From Candidatus Bathyarchaeum tardum (GTDB taxonomy: Archaea > Thermoproteota > Bathyarchaeia > Bathyarchaeales > Bathyarchaeaceae), in NCBI GenBank assembly GCA_024650005.2, contig CP122380.1, forward strand, positions 576,001 through 640,000: a stretch of 64,000 bases of DNA. The letters are read 5' to 3'. The notes under the pieces were generated by a model, which did no database searches, was not told the origin of the DNA, and was given only the letters and a program-made list of their open reading frames with translations. Positions 6,581-50,900 of the stretch are shown here, in pieces. Within the stretch, counting starts at the first letter, position 1, and each line of letters opens with the position of its first letter. Position numbers and translations under genes: made by a program.

Positions 6581-7035
6581 AAGAAATCTTGATTGAAATT
6601 TAATTATGATTCGTTAGTGTCGTCAAGACGATAGGTGGTTAAGAACTCTTTTTTGAAGCAAAATTTTTTGAATTATTTATTCATCAAATATTGCTTCTGA
6701 ATGTTGTGTTAGTGTCTTTGTTGAATAGACAAATGTTGCAAAAAATTTAATTTTTATCAATTATTCATTAAAATTTAGTTGAAAAATTGTTTAGTACTTT
6801 TGTATGTTTTTATTTATCTATAAATCTTTTTTACAAAAATTTTATATCAAAGTTTTGGCACAAGAAGTTTGGGGGAAAAGACTGTGTTGCCCTGGGTAGT
6901 ATTGTTTGCACTTCGGAATCAAAGTTTTACTAAAGTTAATCGATGTCCTGTTAGACAGCATTAACGATTTTCCCTCCTTGAAGCGAGACAAATGTTTCGG
7001 GGGCGCCTCACTGCCCTACGCCCAAGTAAAGGGCA
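6581..7035 (+). repeat. Copy 1 of ~460 bp direct repeat (promoter plus structured 5' leader)
   Basis: Aligns by eye to 9088-9551; 6825-6928 is identical to 9335-9438 (104 bp). Confidence 0.95.
6833..6850 (+). promoter_or_regulatory. Putative BRE/TATA promoter (ACAAAAATTTTATATC)
   Basis: Purine-rich run followed by TTTATA, identical in both repeat copies, ~25 nt upstream of the conserved GGGGGAAAAG. Confidence 0.55.
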
Positions 7036-7093
7036 AAAAGAGATAGCACGGAGAACAAAGCCGTGCAGAAAAACAAAAGGAAGAAAAAATAAA

Positions 7094-7909
7094 ATGAAAA
7101 AAATTCGTTTAACAATAATTTCGCTATTAGTTCTTTGTCTATTTCTATGTTCAAGTCTACAATCGGTTTCAGCCATCATAGTGGGTTCAGCTGTATTTTG
7201 CCCAAATAACTACATTCCTCCACCAGAATGGTACGATACTGAATATGAAATTCAGCTCTCCACGGCATATTGTACTGCAATAAATACCATGCTGACCAGC
7301 AAATACGGAGGTTTATGCTACTTAAGAATCAATGCAACCAGAAATCAATATACTTCTACACTTGGGTACCTAAAATCTGCGTGTGATCAAATAGTAGTGT
7401 TTTCAAAAGGTCACCGAGGAATAGAATATGAACCACCTTTTTACCACATCACTCTTATCGACCACAGTGGAGTCAACGTAGTTGACGACGACCACATTTA
7501 TCCTAATACAGACTATTCAAAAAACACTGTGACATTCATATGGCATTGTCAAACATCAGACTATTACCCACCAATAAGTCCAGCGAAATATGGAATGCCC
7601 TACTGCTGGACCCACGATTACACAATGCAACCCTACGTTACATATGGAGATCATGTTTACTTAGGATGGGTAGGCCAATCTCCACAATTTGAAACCGCAG
7701 TCAATTACCAATACAAATTTGCTGAAGTTGCAGCATGGTTCTGGTACTACGCGTGCGACGGGGATAGTATAGAAGACGCACTGGACCATGTTGCTCAAAG
7801 AATCTTTGGGGCTGCAAATTTTGTTGCCAGCGAACTTGACGATTACACTGCCTATCACGGTCCATTAAAACCCTATGGAAATATGGCATTCTATTTGCCG
7901 GAGGAATGA
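7094..7909 (+). CDS. Secreted protein, putative caspase/gingipain-fold (clan CD-like) cysteine peptidase
   Basis: Signal peptide MKKIRL...VSA (ATG 7094 preferred over 6992); beta-strand-GH (VVFSKGH) and beta-strand-C (FIWHC) arranged like a His-Cys dyad. Confidence 0.5.
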   Translation: MKKIRLTIISLLVLCLFLCSSLQSVSAIIVGSAVFCPNNYIPPPEWYDTEYEIQLSTAYCTAINTMLTSKYGGLCYLRINATRNQYTSTLGYLKSACDQIVVFSKGHRGIEYEPPFYHITLIDHSGVNVVDDDHIYPNTDYSKNTVTFIWHCQTSDYYPPISPAKYGMPYCWTHDYTMQPYVTYGDHVYLGWVGQSPQFETAVNYQYKFAEVAAWFWYYACDGDSIEDALDHVAQRIFGAANFVASELDDYTAYHGPLKPYGNMAFYLPEE

Positions 7910-8979
7910 TGTACATGAAAAAACAAGTTACAAGTAATTACATGTCAGTGCTTGTTATTCTGTTTATTACTGTTCTTCTAGTTTTTCCTGTTACGTTAGC
8001 ATCTGAAGTAACTGCTCAGGCTCAAACTAAAGTATTTATAGACAATGTGCTTCCAGTGGATTTCTCACAATACAATGTAACCCTCAAAAATCACTCACAA
8101 TATGGAACAAGTGACATGATTAGGTACGCGTTAGAGTCAGATGAAAGCAATCTCCGCCTTTTTTTTGAATTTGAAAATAACGTTCTGCGTTATTGTAATA
8201 TAAACACAGAAAAAGGGCAAGTCATCAGTGATAAACAACACGATAACATGATTGATGCTGTAAAAAGTTTTCTTGAAAAGTATCAAACCTACACCAAAAT
8301 TGACTCAACTAACCTGATAGACATGCTAGATAAAATTGATCTGACACAAAATTCAACAATAACAAACGGAAACACTGAACTCACTGTATGTACATATAAC
8401 AACTTGGGAACTGAATTAACTTTATTCAAATGGGCTTACATTGTAAATGGTGCGGAGTATAATTCATTGCAAGTTGGTTTTCAAACAAAAACCATGGTCT
8501 TTGATGTTTTATTGGACACCCGTGCCCTTTATTCAGTTGGCGACACAACAGTAAATGTTTCCAGTGAACAGGCAATTGACCTTGCAGTAAAGCACAGTGC
8601 AGAATACTCATATGCTATGCCGGATGGTTCGCAAGTTTCGGGTTTTAACATAACAAAAGAGAAAACTACAACAGAACTCCTCACTACTGCATTAAACACT
8701 ACAGAACTTAGGCCTTATTGGATGGTTAGAATGTATTTGAACCAAACCTATCCGGGTAGCGTAATAGGATTAACCGTGTTCATCTGGGCCAACAATGGAG
8801 AAGTCTTTGACTGCAGCAACATAGCAGTAGGTGGAGCATACGACAGCTCAATAACACAAACATCAACACCATCCCCCGCGTCTTCCACAAATGATGCCAT
8901 TCCCATAATAATTACTGCTACAGCAACAATAATTGCAATAACAGCCCTTATAGTGGTCATCAAAAAAAGACGCAAATAA
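7906..8979 (+). CDS. Secreted, C-terminally membrane-anchored protein with PepSY/YcdB-like domain
   Basis: Signal peptide; VSSEQAIDLA...LRPYW...VFIWANNGEV; Ser/Thr linker, TM helix, KKRRK tail; ATGA-coupled to the upstream gene. Confidence 0.6.
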   Translation: MMYMKKQVTSNYMSVLVILFITVLLVFPVTLASEVTAQAQTKVFIDNVLPVDFSQYNVTLKNHSQYGTSDMIRYALESDESNLRLFFEFENNVLRYCNINTEKGQVISDKQHDNMIDAVKSFLEKYQTYTKIDSTNLIDMLDKIDLTQNSTITNGNTELTVCTYNNLGTELTLFKWAYIVNGAEYNSLQVGFQTKTMVFDVLLDTRALYSVGDTTVNVSSEQAIDLAVKHSAEYSYAMPDGSQVSGFNITKEKTTTELLTTALNTTELRPYWMVRMYLNQTYPGSVIGLTVFIWANNGEVFDCSNIAVGGAYDSSITQTSTPSPASSTNDAIPIIITATATIIAITALIVVIKKRRK

Positions 8980-9087
8980 TTTTTTGCAATTCCCATTTTT
9001 TCTTTTTTTTAAAAAAACTTTATTCTTGAATGTGAAGTGGAAAAAGATTTTTGAACATAACCCCTTAGGCATTTATTCAGTTTAATT

Positions 9088-9551
9088 AAGAACTCTTGAC
9101 TTGCTCAAATTATGATTCGTTTCTGTAGTCCCGGAAGGCGGGGGTTTATCAGTACTTATTTTTGGAACAAAATTTTTTGAATTATTTATTCATAAAATAT
9201 TGCTTCTGAATGTTGTGTTAGTGTCTTTATTGAATAGACAAATGTTGCAAAAATTTTAATTTTTATCACTTATTCATTAAACTTTAGTTGAAAAATTGTT
9301 TAGTACTTTTGTATGTTTTTATTTTTCTATAAATTCTTTTTTACAAAAATTTTATATCAAAGTTTTGGCACAAGAAGTTTGGGGGAAAAGACTGTGTTGC
9401 CCTGGGTAGTATTGTTTGCACTTCGGAATCAAAGTTTTCCTGCAAAATTAATTGATGTTTCTTGTCAGACGGTGTTAACTGATTTTTCCTCCTTGAAGCG
9501 AAACAAATGTTTCGGGGGTGTGTCACCGCCCTAAGCCCCAAGTGAAGGGCA
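9088..9551 (+). repeat. Copy 2 of ~460 bp direct repeat (promoter plus structured 5' leader)
   Basis: Aligns to 6581-7035 with an offset of ~2510 bp. Confidence 0.95.
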
Positions 9552-9579
9552 GATAAGAACAATGAAAAGGGGGTGAAAA

Positions 9580-10893
9580 GTGAAAATGAAATTTCAAATA
9601 CTTTCGTCTAAACGCAAAGTGGTTACAGGCTCATTTCTTGTTTCCTTACTTTTAGTAACATTTACCTTGATGCCTATAGTTTTTGCTGAACCTAATACAC
9701 AGGATATAACAGTAGACACGGCATACAGCATGATAGAGGGTGGGGCTTTCCCTGACCTTGCTATTTTAGATGTCCGAAACCAAAGCGAATATGACGTCAA
9801 CCACTTGTACGGCACTACTTTGATTCCACTTCATGAGCTTGAGACGAGAATTGGTGAACTTGCAGAGCAAATGAATAATGAAATATTAGTTTACTGTGGA
9901 TCAGGCGGAAGAAGTGAAATAGCATCAGGAATCCTTGACAATAATGGATTCACAAACGTCTTTAACATACTTGGTGGCATCACAGAATGGATAGACTCTG
10001 AATATCCAATATACACAACTTATCACAACGTTACGGTAGACACAATTGGTAGACACCGAATCCGTGTAGACATAGAACCTTGGATGTATGAGATTTGTGA
10101 GTCTTGCGGAAGTCAAGAATGGTCTGATGCCAGTGAACTAATTGATGTTCAAAGGACAACGCTGGAACAAGGAGAAGAGCATACCGTTACTTTAGTGACT
10201 TATGAAGTGAATGGTAAGATAATCGAATTCATCAAAACTGAAACAATACTCTGGGCTTATGAGAAAAATACCGGAAAGAGCAACACCACAGCTCAGTTCA
10301 ATACGACAGAAGTAATTATGAATAATGCAACAATGCAATACTACAGTCTTAACTACTTAGTTCAGCATAAGAACTATAATGTAACTTTATACACGAGCCT
10401 TACACCGTTAGATTCAGAAACATATAACAACTCCTTCACAGTGGTGAACTATGCACCAGTTGCACAACCTGATGTTTTCTCATTAGAGCTAGTAAATTTC
10501 AACTCACCATGTACATTATCGCAACTTTATAATTCATTAGGTGCGGTTGCAAAAGAAGTGGGTAACGTCTATCATGAGAGTCCCGATGAAACATTGCAGC
10601 AACTCAAAAACAGATATTACAAAATGGGTCAAGAAATTAAACACTTATCCCAAATTGTGAATAGAGAACTATCTGACTATAACAAGAACATACTCAACAA
10701 TGTGGTATTCTTAGTAGATGACTTCTGGAGTTGCCTAGCATGTACTGCCAGTTGGACAGCACTTTGCTATCTAGGATGTGTAGGGTTATGCGCCGCTTTT
10801 TGGGCTTTCTGTCCATATGTTGGTGCTTGTGCGGAATTGGGTTGTAATGCAGCTGTTTACATTTTGTGCGAAGAAACAGGATGGTGTCCTTGA
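9580..10893 (+). CDS. Secreted precursor: rhodanese domain plus C-terminal halocin-C8-like Cys-rich peptide
   Basis: Signal peptide; LDVR...YCGSGGRS...GGITEW rhodanese; last 58 aa contain 10 Cys (CxxC-x7-C-x3-C...GC-x7-C-x5-CP). Confidence 0.75.
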   Translation: MKMKFQILSSKRKVVTGSFLVSLLLVTFTLMPIVFAEPNTQDITVDTAYSMIEGGAFPDLAILDVRNQSEYDVNHLYGTTLIPLHELETRIGELAEQMNNEILVYCGSGGRSEIASGILDNNGFTNVFNILGGITEWIDSEYPIYTTYHNVTVDTIGRHRIRVDIEPWMYEICESCGSQEWSDASELIDVQRTTLEQGEEHTVTLVTYEVNGKIIEFIKTETILWAYEKNTGKSNTTAQFNTTEVIMNNATMQYYSLNYLVQHKNYNVTLYTSLTPLDSETYNNSFTVVNYAPVAQPDVFSLELVNFNSPCTLSQLYNSLGAVAKEVGNVYHESPDETLQQLKNRYYKMGQEIKHLSQIVNRELSDYNKNILNNVVFLVDDFWSCLACTASWTALCYLGCVGLCAAFWAFCPYVGACAELGCNAAVYILCEETGWCP

Positions 10894-11361: not shown

Positions 11362-11441
11362 TCAAATGGTCTAAATTGCACTGTGCAAGACATGTTCGAA
11401 CTAATTGTGTAACTCTCACTTTTCTTTTTTTTTTTAAAAAA

Positions 11442-47962: not shown

Positions 47963-50900
47963 CTATAAATCAAAATAGTCATCTACAAGTTTTATTTCTT
48001 TTTTATTCAAACCATATATGTCAAAGATGAAGGCGTCAATTTTTTTATCAATTGATTTTATTCTTTCTTTTATTCTATTTATTTCATTGCATTCTGCTTC
48101 AGTTTTTCTGCTTAATTCTTTATTCAAATTCATTATTTGATCAACGTTTTTTGTTATTGCATCTACCTTCAATTTTGAAGCAGTCATTATGGGCAATGTC
48201 AGAAAATCGTTTGGATAGAATTGAATGTATTTCCCCCTTACATGGATAGAAGCAAATAATACTTGATAATAAAAGTTAATCAATTTTGAATTTAGAATCG
48301 CCATTAAATACTTAAGATCAATGTCGGATCCTCTTGGCAGTATTATTTTGATTGAATTATTGGTATAATATTGTTCATCATCATATGCAACTTCTGGACG
48401 TAGACCAAATAGAGCAGTTACAAGTTTTTCTTTGGCCTTGAATATTCGAGGATCTCTTAGAGAACCATATTCTCCTTTATCTTTATCGAAAATACTTGGA
48501 TCATAATTGACCCATAGTTTGTCCCATTTTATTGAGTACCTATCAATGCATTTTGCTGTGATTAATTTTTTACAATTCTTATTTTCCTTTTTGTTTAAAA
48601 TCATTTTATCTCTAATGTTTCCCGTATGAATTCCGTCTTTCATTTCACATAAACTAGTTAAAGGGATGGATTTTTGTTTAATCCGTTTTAGAAGATGCAT
48701 AACTCCTGGAATTAAATCAATTGAAAAAATATTCTTAGGTGAATCAGCGAAGGCAGATTGATTTATTTCATACACGTCACTAGTGTCTCTAATTTTTCCC
48801 TCTTTGATTTCTTTTTTAATTTTAATGATGTTGTTTTCTCTAACTTTTTTATTTGGTTCTTTTTGAAAGATGAAAATGTAGGGGTATGTTGCAGCATCTT
48901 TAAACACGTTCATATGTGAAACGTCTAGAATGGTGTTTATGATGCAATTTTGAAGGATCACTTTTCTAATACCCAAACCATATTTTGAAGCTGTAAACTT
49001 GTTGGAAATAATAAACCCTAATGAATTATGGTATTTAGCAAGTGATAATGACCTTTCAATAAAGAGAACGCCTAGATCAAAACGTTTGAAAGCACCTTTA
49101 AATAAACTCTTAAAAACATTCCATTCTATTTCAGGAATGTCTCTGGATTCTAAATAAGGAGGGTTACCAATAATTATATCAAAGCCTCCTTCATCGATAA
49201 TGTGGCCAAAATCAATTTTCCAATGAAATGGATTTGTACCTATATATTCTTTGAATTTTATTGGGATATCAGTTAATTTCTTTTTATCAAAATTTGAATC
49301 AATTTTTCTGTTGATATGTTCCAAAAATATAGGATTAACACTGGAATATATTGAAATTTTTATTTTTTCTAAAATTCCTTTGAGGTTTACAGCTTCCAAT
49401 CCATGTGTCATGCGATAGATCTTATAGAGGATCGAATATGCTTCGATATATGATTTCAATTGGAAAGTTGAAAGCAGATCACGAGCTTTCTGTAAATCTT
49501 TTCTTATATCGTTCTTACAAAATGTTATTAACCCTGCAAATAATGCATCAACTTCGTTTGTCAAAGGTCTCTGTAACGGGATTTGTTTTAATTCTTCATT
49601 AATCCAGCCTATGAGACTGTTTCCAATACGAATGTTATATTCAATATTTGGCAATGCATGCATTTCTGAACCTTCTTTGTATTCTGCCACCAACCAGAGC
49701 CAAAGTCTTAATTTTGTAATCTCACCAGCGCCATCAAGAATATCGACTCCATAAATGTTGTTTACTATTGTGTTAAGTTTAATACGATAGTAATCTGCTC
49801 CATTTCCCAATTTATTTAATAATCTAACTTTAACTTGAAATAAAACCTCAGAAGCTTTTATTAAGAAAGCTCCAGACCCACATGCAGGATCTAAGATCTT
49901 CATTCGGTCAAGGGCATCAAGAGCTTTTTTTATGTCGTTACTGTTTGCATTTTCTACTAATTCATTTACATCATTATACTTTGAATTAAATAGATCTAAT
50001 ATAAAGGGGTAAATTGTATTTTCTACAATATATTCAGTTATTTCCTCTGGAGTATAATAAACTCCCTTCTTTTTTCGTTCACTAGCTTCATTAATTGCTT
50101 TTTCTGCCTCTTTTTTAAAGCCACTTCTTTCCCATTCAACAACGCTTCTTTCATATACATGACCGAGTATTTCTGGAGTAAGAACATTTTCTTTATCTTC
50201 GATGGCTGTTTCAATGTCTTCTTCAATTATCCAGTGATATTGGTTCAAGAAATCAAAAACGTCTCCCCAATCCTTTTCGCTTAATAAAAATCTCAGATTC
50301 CCCTCTAAATGATCGGGCCTGAATAAACCTCCATTCAGATAAGGAATTTTGATCAAAAAATCATTTATCTGTAAAAATCTATTTTGAGCATCATTAAACA
50401 AGTAAAAGAGATTTTTAACATTTTCAAAGAAATTATCTGTATCTAATAAAATTCTAAATAAATTTTCTCCACTAATGCTTTTTCCGGTGTTTAGCGTAAT
50501 TATACCTTTATGGCAAAGAAAATATGTGAAAAAAATTCTATCAAATAATTTTTGACTTATAAGATATTTTTCAACTGGTTTGAAATCATTCTTTATACTT
50601 CTTGCAACAATATTTCTCTTTGATTTAAATTTTTCATAGAACCAGCCTGAAACATCCTTACGATGAAAAATATAATCGAATTTTGTATCAATTTTTTTTA
50701 ATTTATCTAACTTTGAAATGTTATCCTTTGTTCGGTCTGAATATAGAAAATATCTCCCCTCTCCAAAATTTCTGAAAAAAATAATTTTTGTATCATGTAC
50801 AATTGCACAATAAGCTAATCCTCTTTCAATGAGAAAATGATTTTTTACATCTTTTGTTTTTTCAATCTCTTTTACTTCGTAAATAACCAATAGTTTTCTT

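Follow-up and report, generated by a model that had tools for sequence, protein, structure and literature searches.

The window, that is the whole 64,000-nt stretch of the Candidatus Bathyarchaeum tardum genome analysed here, includes on its forward strand two genes preceded by long and similar upstream regions. The first codes for a 271-aa exported protein; neither this protein nor its relatives fall into a Pfam or NCBIfam family, and a profile of four of its homologues matched nothing in PDB. The second codes for an exported rhodanese-domain protein. The upstream regions share direct repeats at 6642-6843/9151-9352, 6822-6931/9332-9441 and 6966-7023/9481-9538, with identities of 92%, 98% and 88%, respectively; the two repeat copies of the original prediction are thus real. 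They belong to a 410-nt block, repeated four times in the Bathyarchaeum tardum genome, two of these being the window copies. Each of the four copies combines a putative promoter with a leader of about 205-225 nt:

6664..6832, + strand: AT-rich block ahead of the copy 1 promoter, common to all four genomic promoter-leader copies
6833..6847, + strand: BRE/TATA-like element ACAAAAA-TTTTATAT, copy 1, invariant across the four genomic copies
6871..6967, + strand: predicted leader of copy 1, 5' part, lineage-specific, including the GTGTTGCC/GGTAGTAT and GTTAAT/ATTAAC hairpins of the original prediction
7077..7096, + strand: purine-rich, Shine-Dalgarno-like AAGGAAG and ATG (7094) of the 271-aa exported protein
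9343..9357, + strand: BRE/TATA-like element ACAAAAA-TTTTATAT, copy 2, read from the sequence and from the alignment of the copies
9381..9482, + strand: predicted leader of copy 2, 5' part, lineage-specific and unsupported (z -0.02)
9567..9588, + strand: Shine-Dalgarno region AAAAGGGGGTGAAAAG and start (GTG 9580 or ATG 9586) of the exported rhodanese-domain protein

The promoter-leader repeat

In a four-way alignment, the similarity to the most distant genomic copy begins at TTTTTGAATTATTTATTCAT. Judging from its sequence, ACAAAAA-TTTTATAT presumably acts as the promoter; a G-run is found 24 nt after the TATA-like box, at 6871 in copy 1 and at 9381 in copy 2, and with start codons at 7094 and 9586 the predicted leaders measure about 223 and 205 nt. 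A similar TATA box, followed by a G-run at 24-33 nt from the start of the box, is present upstream of 19 of 75 homologous motifs, as counted by a crude rule.

The original prediction considered the whole leader as a conserved structured RNA; this holds for its 3' 68 nt and finds no support in the 5' part, where two of the four proposed hairpins are located (z 0 to -0.6). The 5' 105-110 nt, compared with shuffles, give z values of -0.45, -0.02, -0.61 and -0.05 in the four genomic copies, the predicted fold is unlike in each of them, and no DNA match outside the organism's own genome was found among 40 relatives. The GTGTTGCC/GGTAGTAT stem is uninformative, since it is identical in both window copies, and it is partly broken or shifted in the two distant genomic copies. 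The outer GTTAAT/ATTAAC helix shows one A.C mismatch and one wobble in copy 2, where the inner TGTC/GACA pairing cannot form because TGTC is directly followed by AGAC. The idea of the whole leader as a single structured RNA was dropped, given full-leader minimum-energy z values of only -1.79 and -0.56 and an RNAalifold analysis of the four genomic copies, which returned one compensatory pair and a long-range fold unlike the hairpins first proposed. Of 21 listed runs, the two of RNA (metatranscriptomes) hold small shares only; their contigs, aligned at 90% likeness, cover 7186-7695, 7576-7695 and a 35-nt piece, 7069-7103. They come from relatives of 90-95% similarity and represent parts of the ORF, not the leader. 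The 410-nt repeat is a promoter-plus-leader unit, duplicated or homogenised in this genome, and it is not the conserved element.

A conserved module of three hairpins

The conserved structured part corresponds to the 3' 68 nt, i.e. the last third of the leader of about 220 nt, and is organized as follows:

6968..6979, + strand: anti-Shine-Dalgarno-like pyrimidine tract TTTTCCCTCCTT, whose last four bases are the first four of the 68-nt module
6976-7043, + strand: conserved 68-nt motif, copy 1 (covariance-model matches, covariation, fold z -1.97)
6984-6989/6994-6999, + strand: helix H1, copy 1
7000-7005/7012-7017, + strand: helix H2, copy 1
7020-7023/7031-7034, + strand: helix H3, copy 1
7035-7043, + strand: purine tail, copy 1, part of the 68-nt motif
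7046..7066, + strand: hairpin H4, GCACGG/CCGTGC, an optional element of the spacer that copies 1, 3 and 4 and several relatives share but copy 2 lacks
9491-9559, + strand: conserved motif, copy 2 (covariance-model matches, fold z -2.23)
9499-9504/9509-9514, + strand: helix H1, copy 2
9515-9520/9527-9532, + strand: helix H2, copy 2
9535-9538/9547-9550, + strand: helix H3, copy 2

The module opens with a 5' AAGCC and continues with the adjacent hairpins H1 (6-7 bp), H2 (5-6 bp, AGGYG/CRCCU) and H3 (4-5 bp, GCCCU/AGGGC), ending in a single-stranded purine tail, CAGAAAGAGA, which is invariant in the family and diverged in copy 2 (CAGATAAGAA); a purine-rich spacer holding the gene's own Shine-Dalgarno sequence lies on its 3' side. 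A variant subfamily in family f6 (the f6 subfamily) carries GGAAGCG/UGCUU as H2. In the alignment, sequence conservation of loops, junctions and tail exceeds what pairing needs, which fits recognition by a partner.

H1 coincides with one of the hairpins first described, CGAGAC/GTTTCG in one copy and CGAAAC/GTTTCG in the other, which proved to be part of the cross-species motif. Conversely, the proposed GCCCT/AGGGC helix (7013-7017, 7030-7034) pairs in 86.3% of cases across 75 homologues against 84.7% in shuffled columns, and it breaks where H3 covaries; the comparative structure has H2 and H3 instead.

The original prediction had staked its claim on covariation among homologs, and this was found. 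Over the 17 pairs of the three helices in 75 sequences, 91.6% of the cells are paired, compared with 79.6% after shuffling, and 173 cells are changed on both sides, compared with 43.4 (sd 8.5), a value that none of 500 shuffles reached; these shuffle statistics overstate independence, since the input sequences are related, and the four columns altered together in f6 amount to a single event in the covariation counts. Slid controls gave at most 58 double-changed cells against the 173 observed, and compensatory change affects 14 of the 17 helix pairs. A structure-blind MAFFT alignment of 24 sequences gave the same picture, with 90.1% of paired cells against 82.4% and 43 double changes against 14.3, again reached by none of 500 shuffles. 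When corrected mutual information was calculated for all column pairs, the top seven were helix pairs, and nothing in the module gave a signal of a pseudoknot or of covariation between loops. G.U cells outnumber A.C cells in the helices (110 versus 47), indicating an RNA on the sense strand. Moreover, the three-hairpin fold is the minimum-energy structure in five of six independent sequences, with z from -2.0 to -4.6 in all six. Compensatory pairs exceed both shuffled and slid controls, as is typical of conserved structured RNAs in general; in either alignment, none of the 500 shuffles attained the observed covariation score or percentage of paired cells. Thus, on the sense strand, compensatory changes have preserved the H1-H3 structure throughout one order of Bathyarchaeia and in three sampled genomes of the phylum to which Atabeyarchaeia belong.

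As anticipated, Rfam contains no match to the motif: Rfam 15 at the gathering score found only two tRNAs in the whole window; a search of 6600-7150 with E up to 10 gave five chance-level matches, all of them upstream in the AT-rich part and none touching 6976-7043, and five loci with canonical copies gave no match with E up to 1. No paper describing this element was found in a full-text literature search. The 68-base three-hairpin element is uncatalogued, and it is probably a regulatory part of the mRNA. Of the two forms first envisaged for it, an undescribed archaeal cis-regulatory RNA or a small RNA, the former survives as an undescribed structured RNA of mRNA leaders. A free-standing sRNA is unlikely, because the motif is always in sense, with a start codon following after a few tens of nt, and can also be intercistronic; it is always co-oriented with an ORF, and no terminator-like T run was found between motif and start codon.

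Other candidate features of the module were rejected. Kissing of the UCAC loop of H2 with the GUGA loop of H3 gave no mutual-information pair, and sequences with GAAAC as H2 loop keep the H3 loop. A seven-codon ORF from a GUG in H2 has the wrong spacing and a stop that is not conserved, and the GUG is absent in the copies of this genome. Finally, the 10-mer complementary to the tail occurs nine times in the genome, three of these being the motif itself; the other six share no common context that would point to a complementary trans RNA.

Distribution and downstream genes

By covariance model, the motif is found in 13 of 25 genomes of the genus and in 35 of 151 sampled genomes of the order, which belong to five of 12 families, with up to seven copies per genome. 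In a sample of 151 genomes from the phylum of two Atabeyarchaeia-labelled records (Asgard) it is present in three, including these two records, which bear three and one copies. An exact-pattern scan of 185,579 species genomes returned 50 loci, 43 of which are labelled as Bathyarchae*, three as 'Thermoproteota archaeon' (one isolate), two as 'uncultured archaeon' and two as Atabeyarchaeia. The motif was also found on two contigs of a viral collection. The Bathyarchaeum tardum genome contains six copies, each heading a small operon of exported proteins; besides the two in the window, they are located near 775.2, 766.4, 714.3 and 1327.9 kb of the genome. Intercistronic copies exist as well, several within one cluster and up to four on one strand of a 6-kb cluster.

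The position of the motif is rather constant: it is always co-oriented with an ORF whose start lies within about 110 nt, and in most copies 16-60 nt separate its end from the start codon. Its distance from the predicted 5' end is more variable, being about 105-110 nt in the four blocks of this genome and about 17 nt in some lineages; elsewhere the motif lies behind an upstream ORF. An N-terminal hydrophobic segment, defined as a hydrophobic 15-mer within the first 70 residues, is present in 60 of 67 downstream ORFs, compared with 455 of the 1773 ORFs (26%) of this genome. The placement of the motif before genes for exported proteins is highly non-random. Pfam families above cut-off were assigned to 14 of 64 scanned downstream proteins, leaving 50 without any, and are mutually unrelated; their types are extracytoplasmic, comprising SBP_bac_5 (seven proteins), NosD/beta-helix, Big_14, PPC and the N-terminus of Peptidase_M73 (two proteins), and a further type is a rhodanese domain behind a signal peptide. 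The f6 variant precedes ABC-type solute-binding proteins (SBP_bac_5 in seven proteins).

Possible roles of the module

In predicted folds, one part of the tract TTTTCCCTCCTT pairs with the 5' G-run and another with the Shine-Dalgarno region, so that the motif is enclosed by a helix; this helix is present in the minimum-energy folds of both window copies, with tract-Shine-Dalgarno duplex energies of -7.7 and -13.4 kcal/mol. Across the family, 18 of 56 sequences reach -8 kcal/mol and 11 of 56 have z below -1.64 (mean z -0.45), and the helix was rejected as a family-wide feature, being weak or absent in most homologues. The window copies resemble Shine-Dalgarno-sequestering switches and RNA thermometers (ROSE, fourU) in having an anti-Shine-Dalgarno-like CU tract that can pair with the Shine-Dalgarno region; unlike these systems, however, the real Shine-Dalgarno sequence is outside the module, most homologues form the closing helix weakly or not at all and f6 loses the Shine-Dalgarno look-alike. 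The latter is H2 itself, which resembles a Shine-Dalgarno/anti-Shine-Dalgarno duplex (GGAGGYG with UCACCRCCU; the 16S 3' end reads UCACCUCCU, given for the 16S rRNA of this genome as GGATCACCTCCTAAG). Since the likeness is lost in f6 and the central pair covaries away, it was treated as incidental. The conserved module overlaps neither the real Shine-Dalgarno sequence nor the start codon, and predicted accessibility of the ribosome-binding site is 0.55 with the native and 0.57 with a shuffled motif (native higher in 27 of 58; p = 0.31); thus, no effect on translation follows from folding alone, and the idea of an insulator was rejected too, as the motif does not raise this predicted accessibility.

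The explanation that we prefer, and to which we give an even chance, is that the module is a cis-acting docking site on mRNA for a trans-acting factor, most likely a protein. The module lies in the predicted leader or intercistronic spacer of mRNAs for a few exported and membrane proteins; by docking there, the factor would adjust either how translation is initiated or how long the cistron downstream persists, the outcome being the co-regulation of a small regulon of surface or secreted proteins. In the copies of this genome the folded module may in addition close the Shine-Dalgarno-sequestering helix, possibly as a local read-out that is not general in the family. Protein-binding cis-regulatory leaders are well known, e.g. 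the ribosomal-protein leaders of bacteria and archaea. With these the motif shares its short length, its conserved structure and its place in the 5' leader, in sense and near the start codon; it likewise has conserved loops and junctions, covarying helices and several copies per genome that head one functional class of genes. Unlike these, its genes code for exported proteins, mostly without an assigned function, no autoregulating partner is encoded downstream, and the fold matches no Rfam family.

Alternatively, the hairpins could be a passive module for mRNA stabilisation or processing, which blocks exonucleolytic decay or marks an endonucleolytic cut separating cistrons, so that a high output of surface proteins is secured without any regulator. 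We consider this unlikely, although several observations agree with it: the hairpins fold stably on their own (z down to -4.6), the motif is found between cistrons too and up to four times on one strand of the 6-kb cluster, and in some lineages only about 17 nt lie before the motif. Long structured leaders that lengthen mRNA half-life are a known theme for bacterial S-layer and ompA mRNAs, where they are gene-specific and act via a hairpin at the very 5' end. As in E. coli ompA and bacterial S-layer leaders, a long leader with stable hairpins precedes genes for exported or surface proteins; according to PMC10477458, Bathyarchaeum tardum also possesses an S-layer and an outer sheath, and hence must export abundant proteins. 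The motif is, however, a discrete 68-nt module common to unrelated genes and to two phyla, and it is also intercistronic. Moreover, about 105 nt separate it from the predicted 5' end in this genome, so that only a processed transcript could be capped by it, and generic hairpins do not need conserved loops, junctions and tail, which here are near-invariant across the order and the Atabeyarchaeia copies.

The same conservation at unpaired positions, in sequence and in structure, together with the location in leaders and the f6 variant ahead of the solute-binding proteins, would suit a riboswitch, with an aptamer whose ligand, a small molecule or second messenger, reports envelope or nutrient status and which controls surface and binding proteins. 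Bacterial second-messenger riboswitches likewise head diverse genes for surface proteins, and the c-di-GMP-I/GEMM and c-di-AMP/ydaO classes resemble the motif as conserved leader RNAs whose genes are united by cell-surface location, not by pathway. In contrast to these classes, the motif has no Rfam match even at permissive E-values and consists of three simple tandem hairpins, with neither a multi-helix junction nor a signal of pseudoknot or loop-loop covariation, and with no evident ligand. As to an expression platform, no terminator-like U tract was found from motif to start codon and the Shine-Dalgarno sequence is not overlapped, while a helix closing over the Shine-Dalgarno region is predicted for the window copies and for 18 of 56 family members at -8 kcal/mol or better. 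In addition, the exported location is the common trait of the downstream genes, which share no pathway. A riboswitch is thus improbable.

The near-exclusive link to proteins with a signal peptide or an N-terminal membrane segment, in two archaeal phyla and on the two contigs of the viral collection, could also be read as an RNA address label directing mRNAs or translating ribosomes to the membrane or to the secretion machinery. Only six genes of this genome bear the motif, however, against 455 ORFs with N-terminal hydrophobic segments, so it marks a small subset and not export as such; likewise, 12 of 25 genomes of the genus show no motif, so that it cannot be a general export signal, and such a label appears very improbable. 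A bolder version, on which we place just as slight a probability, regards the module as a signal at RNA level that addresses or licenses mRNAs for a special route of export and that would be passed on, along with its cargo genes, among Bathyarchaeia, Atabeyarchaeia and their viruses; a dedicated factor would couple the translation of a few mRNAs to the membrane or to S-layer and sheath assembly.

Finally, a feature that is not RNA at all, either at the DNA level (inverted repeats bound by a transcription factor, a mobile repeat) or coding (a leader peptide, an N-terminal extension), is hardly credible: several copies per genome, the fourfold 410-nt block, the occurrence on viral-collection contigs and in a second phylum and, in copies 1 and 4, a frame that opens at an ATG within the H1 loop and continues into the gene would favour it, but half-sites vary with pairing kept, compensatory changes with the above G.U to A.C ratio indicate a sense-strand RNA, orientation and distance from the start codon are fixed, flanks read by eye show no terminal repeats or target duplications around the 68-nt module, and the frame of the ATG, which is not conserved and is specific to the copies of this genome, stops early in copies 2 and 3. 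Whichever frame is read across the core, stops interrupt it in 24-62 of the 62 anchored sequences, which show no conserved start and no open frame for a leader peptide or upstream ORF; as first proposed, indels break any shared frame between the two copies in their pairwise alignment. The motif is also unlike integron attC sites or MITE-like elements, with their single long imperfect palindrome or terminal inverted repeats: it consists of three separate short hairpins of conserved primary sequence, which are always in sense and mostly 16-60 nt away from the next start codon.

Implications for Bathyarchaeia

To our knowledge, archaea have few known families of conserved cis-regulatory RNAs, and none described for Bathyarchaeia was found in the literature searched, even if these are one of the most abundant lineages in sediments. 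As a docking site, the motif would define a small post-transcriptional regulon of exported proteins, mostly uncharacterised, and would offer a handle on the RNA-binding factor or the signal that controls cell-surface proteins; its function is experimentally reachable, since Bathyarchaeum tardum can be grown in enrichment culture. Its presence before signal-peptide genes in the Asgard records provides a means of tracing gene flow between two archaeal phyla that occur together, and the covariance model can be used to point out true start codons, as well as genes for exported proteins, in MAGs of Bathyarchaeia.

Structure and covariation of the motif

The conserved part of the leaders is a 68-nt module, located in the window at 6976-7043 (copy 1) and 9491-9559 (copy 2). 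Its consensus starts with AAGCC and a first helix, H1 (6-7 bp, loop UGACU or UAAAU), directly followed by H2 (AGGYG/CRCCU, loop UGUCAC); after an A comes H3 (GCCCU/AGGGC, loop AAKUGA) and then CAGAAAGAGA. The module is a conserved RNA structure of the sense strand, and its loops, junctions and single-stranded tail are conserved in sequence.

In the main alignment, in which 75 sequences were fitted to the model structure and compared with 500 shuffles, 91.6% of 1240 cells are paired versus 79.6% after shuffling. Both sides have changed in 173 cells versus 43.4 (sd 8.5), a count reached by 0 of 500 shuffles, and since the sequences are related these statistics overstate independence. The changes are dispersed over many lineages and all three helices, with compensatory change in 14 of the 17 pairs; when the partners were slid by 1-3 columns as a control, at most 58 double changes were counted. 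Because this alignment was fitted to the structure, the count was repeated on a structure-blind MAFFT alignment of 24 sequences, where 90.1% of cells are paired versus 82.4% and double changes number 43 versus 14.3, again reached by 0 of 500 shuffles. Covariation among homologues, proposed as a check in the original prediction, is thus found in both the structure-fitted and the structure-blind alignment. In an unsupervised mutual-information scan of the motif columns, the top seven places are taken by seven helix pairs; other high-scoring pairs are the signature of one clade, and no extra tertiary pair was detected. The three-hairpin fold is predicted in five of six independent sequences, the sixth retaining H1 only (z from -1.97 to -4.60 across the six). 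G.U cells (110) exceed A.C cells (47), which fits an RNA read from the sense strand, and no reading frame is open through the element; an element acting at the DNA or coding level is the alternative on which these two observations bear.

The original prediction, an undescribed cis-regulatory RNA or small RNA with four leader hairpins, holds in part: its repeat copies and its CGAGACA/TGTTTCG hairpin, which is H1 and a helix of the whole family, are retained, and the other three hairpins are not. In the GCCCT/AGGGC helix the 3' strands of H2 and H3 would pair with each other; family-wide, 86.3% of its cells pair versus 84.7% in shuffled columns, and 15 sequences lack the pairing where H3 covaries. 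It could conceivably be a minor alternative conformer, but the conserved helix is a different one. The two remaining hairpins belong to the initial 105-110 nt of the leader, a part whose folding is not better than that of shuffled sequences (z -0.45, -0.02, -0.61 and -0.05 in the four copies) and which is predicted to fold differently in each; the stem described as invariant is identical in both window copies and altered in the other two genomic copies. No homologue of this 5' part was detected outside the B. tardum genome in a DNA search of 40 relatives. Other lineages have the motif either some 17 nt after a GGGGAAA start or immediately after an upstream ORF, indicating that the long 5' part is a local addition.

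Repeat blocks and predicted promoters in B. tardum

The B. tardum genome consists of one contig of 2,152,572 bases, from an organism described in PMC10477458 as having a circular chromosome and cells that bear an S-layer and an outer sheath. It contains four promoter-leader blocks, with 100, 92, 87 and 85% identity to the query, and exported-protein genes lie downstream of all four. The two copies in the window differ by several short indels in pairwise alignment; in each copy an AT-rich block is followed by a BRE/TATA-like box, a G-run, about 205-225 nt of non-coding sequence and the start codon.

Features of the two repeat copies in the window (forward strand)
6642-6843 and 9151-9352: direct repeat, 92% identical
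6822-6931 and 9332-9441: direct repeat, 98% identical
6966-7023 and 9481-9538: direct repeat, 88% identical
6833-6847 and 9343-9357: BRE/TATA-like box ACAAAAA-TTTTATAT, from sequence reading
6871 and 9381: G-run, 24 nt past the box
7094 (ATG, copy 1); 9580 (GTG) or 9586 (ATG, copy 2): start codon of a signal-peptide protein

Transcription would be expected to start at the G-run, 24 nt after an archaeal box of this type. The AT-rich block upstream of the box (about 170 nt; 6664-6832 and 9173-9342, and in the genome at about 774.9 kb on the plus and 766.8 kb on the minus strand) is about as conserved among the four copies as the transcribed part. It contains a repeated TTTAGT box (TTTAGTTGAAAAATTGTTTAGTAC), and L011, a locus in a related genome, has a similar TTTAGTTGAA...TTTAGTA upstream of its own promoter; both may be candidate transcription-factor sites. 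Three of the four blocks are directly preceded by a further conserved stretch, AATTATGATTCGTT with a short GC hairpin after it (6606-6640 and 9110-9150, with an equivalent in locus L003). This stretch lies between the block and the gene before it, and may be a terminator or a small RNA. A family of 43-nt T-rich repeats behind genes (8974-9016, 11399-11441 and 48560-48602; 72-74% identical) looks like shared oligo-T terminator regions.

An ATG in the H1 loop opens a frame that continues into the 271-aa gene and yields a spurious 305-aa ORF (6992-7909); the same occurs in the copy at 766 kb and is absent from the other two, and gene callers may mis-set starts at such copies.

Downstream genes and distribution of the motif

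In every case the motif has the same orientation as the next ORF. It sits shortly before the ribosome-binding site of genes for exported proteins, ending in most copies 16-60 nt before the start codon; the spacer is purine-rich, with a GGAG-type Shine-Dalgarno (SD) sequence. A downstream ORF was assigned by a set rule for 67 of 75 matches, and 60 of these 67 have, in their first 70 residues, a hydrophobic 15-mer with a mean Kyte-Doolittle value of at least 2.0, versus 455 of 1773 non-overlapping B. tardum ORFs of 120 aa or more (Fisher's p 6e-27, uncorrected for the relatedness of the sequences). Among the eight matches left out, several have short or miscalled hydrophobic ORFs in their flanks, and a few matches clearly precede non-exported proteins, e.g. 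at loci L042, L078 and L080. Only six genes bear the motif in B. tardum, which means that just a small subset of the exported proteins is marked by it.

A Pfam family was found above cut-off in 14 of 64 downstream proteins: SBP_bac_5 (seven, all in a variant subfamily of family f6 of the order), the Peptidase_M73 N-terminal region (two), and NosD/beta-helix, Big_14, PPC, DUF6487 and rhodanese. A single gene cluster can contain several motifs in succession, and in one case a partial copy overlaps with the end of the ORF before it.

Several motifs are followed by exported proteins of one aromatic-rich family (window 7094-7906; L010:533-1492; L013:522-1496; L015:464-1504), with invariant residues including F..W.C and a C-terminal G-N...P, and with no relative in Pfam, NCBIfam or PDB. 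In several species of the genus, a TGTATATACA-type palindrome recurs ahead of the promoters that serve motif-bearing genes (some 50 nt before the TATA boxes at L015, L018, L016, L027, L035 and L010); it could be an operator to which a shared regulator binds. In other families of the order, the motif comes directly after a small conserved ORF (MKKAIIVVKLVPESSSVSDSQIVKEILAEAKIP...; L063:1331-1555, with equivalents in L084, L095, L078 and L072) and a non-coding stretch, likewise conserved, that contains a short hairpin; a small membrane-protein gene then follows the motif. Downstream of the motif at L100:1506-1577 the signal-peptide frame is reached only after nine A directly past the ATG, either an assembly error or a slippery homopolymer.

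When the 421-nt block was used as DNA query against 40 relatives, only its last 45-60 nt matched, in two genomes of the genus, with the same short hairpins in different letters and again right before a signal-peptide gene. A first covariance model (about 110 nt) gave 27 matches in 15 of 25 genus genomes, including two further copies in B. tardum. A second model, R2 (68 positions, built from 24 sequences, with a different third-helix register), matched 13 of the 25 genus genomes and 35 of 151 sampled genomes of the order (f1 15/35, f2 1/3, f6 9/25, f8 1/1, f9 8/35), with no match in its seven other families in the same sample. In the class, 13 of 151 sampled genomes matched, all matches with E below 1e-4 being in the same order. 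An exact-pattern scan of 185,579 species, one genome each, returned 50 loci, by label 43 Bathyarchae*, three 'Thermoproteota archaeon' (all one isolate), two 'uncultured archaeon' and two Atabeyarchaeia chromosomes. R2 finds three copies in one and one copy in the other of these two Atabeyarchaeia (Asgard) genomes, matches 3 of 151 sampled genomes of their phylum, and the motif is also present on two contigs of a viral collection (L164, L165); the loci labelled Atabeyarchaeia are L143/L159, L160, L161 and L162. Signal-peptide ORFs also follow the four Atabeyarchaeia copies and the two of the viral collection. This distribution suggests that motif-plus-gene units were transferred between co-occurring archaeal phyla, perhaps by mobile elements.

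Possible role of the motif

The sense-strand structure, the position before the ribosome-binding site and the conserved loops, junctions and tail point to a putative docking site for a trans-acting factor, which would set translation or stability of the downstream cistron. The ribosome-binding site has a predicted unpaired probability of 0.55 with the native motif versus 0.57 with shuffled ones (native higher in 27 of 58; p = 0.31), so that folding alone does not explain an effect. In minimum-energy folds of the window copies the SD region is bound by a CU tract (6968-6979; 9483-9494), and the motif would form the loop of the sequestering helix; the duplex energies are -7.7, -13.4 and -11.1 kcal/mol in copies 1, 2 and 4. 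In the fold of copy 1 the CU tract also pairs with the 5'-terminal G-run, which would make a three-part switch. Family-wide, only 18 of 56 sequences have an SD-closing helix that reaches -8 kcal/mol, and z is below -1.64 in 11 of 56; thus, this helix is at most a lineage-specific read-out.

Besides being a docking site, the module could act as a passive stabiliser or processing site of the transcript, as a riboswitch or as an mRNA address label.

No match to the motif was found in Rfam 15, whether for the whole window at gathering score, for the motif at E up to 10 or, with E up to 1, for five loci that carry canonical copies; likewise, a search of article full texts found no description of such an element in Bathyarchaeia or other archaea. 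The family occurs in a single order of Bathyarchaeia and also in Atabeyarchaeia, and its existence and structure are well supported; the feature is, on this evidence, a real and new family of 68-nt RNAs in predicted leaders of what would be a small regulon of exported proteins.
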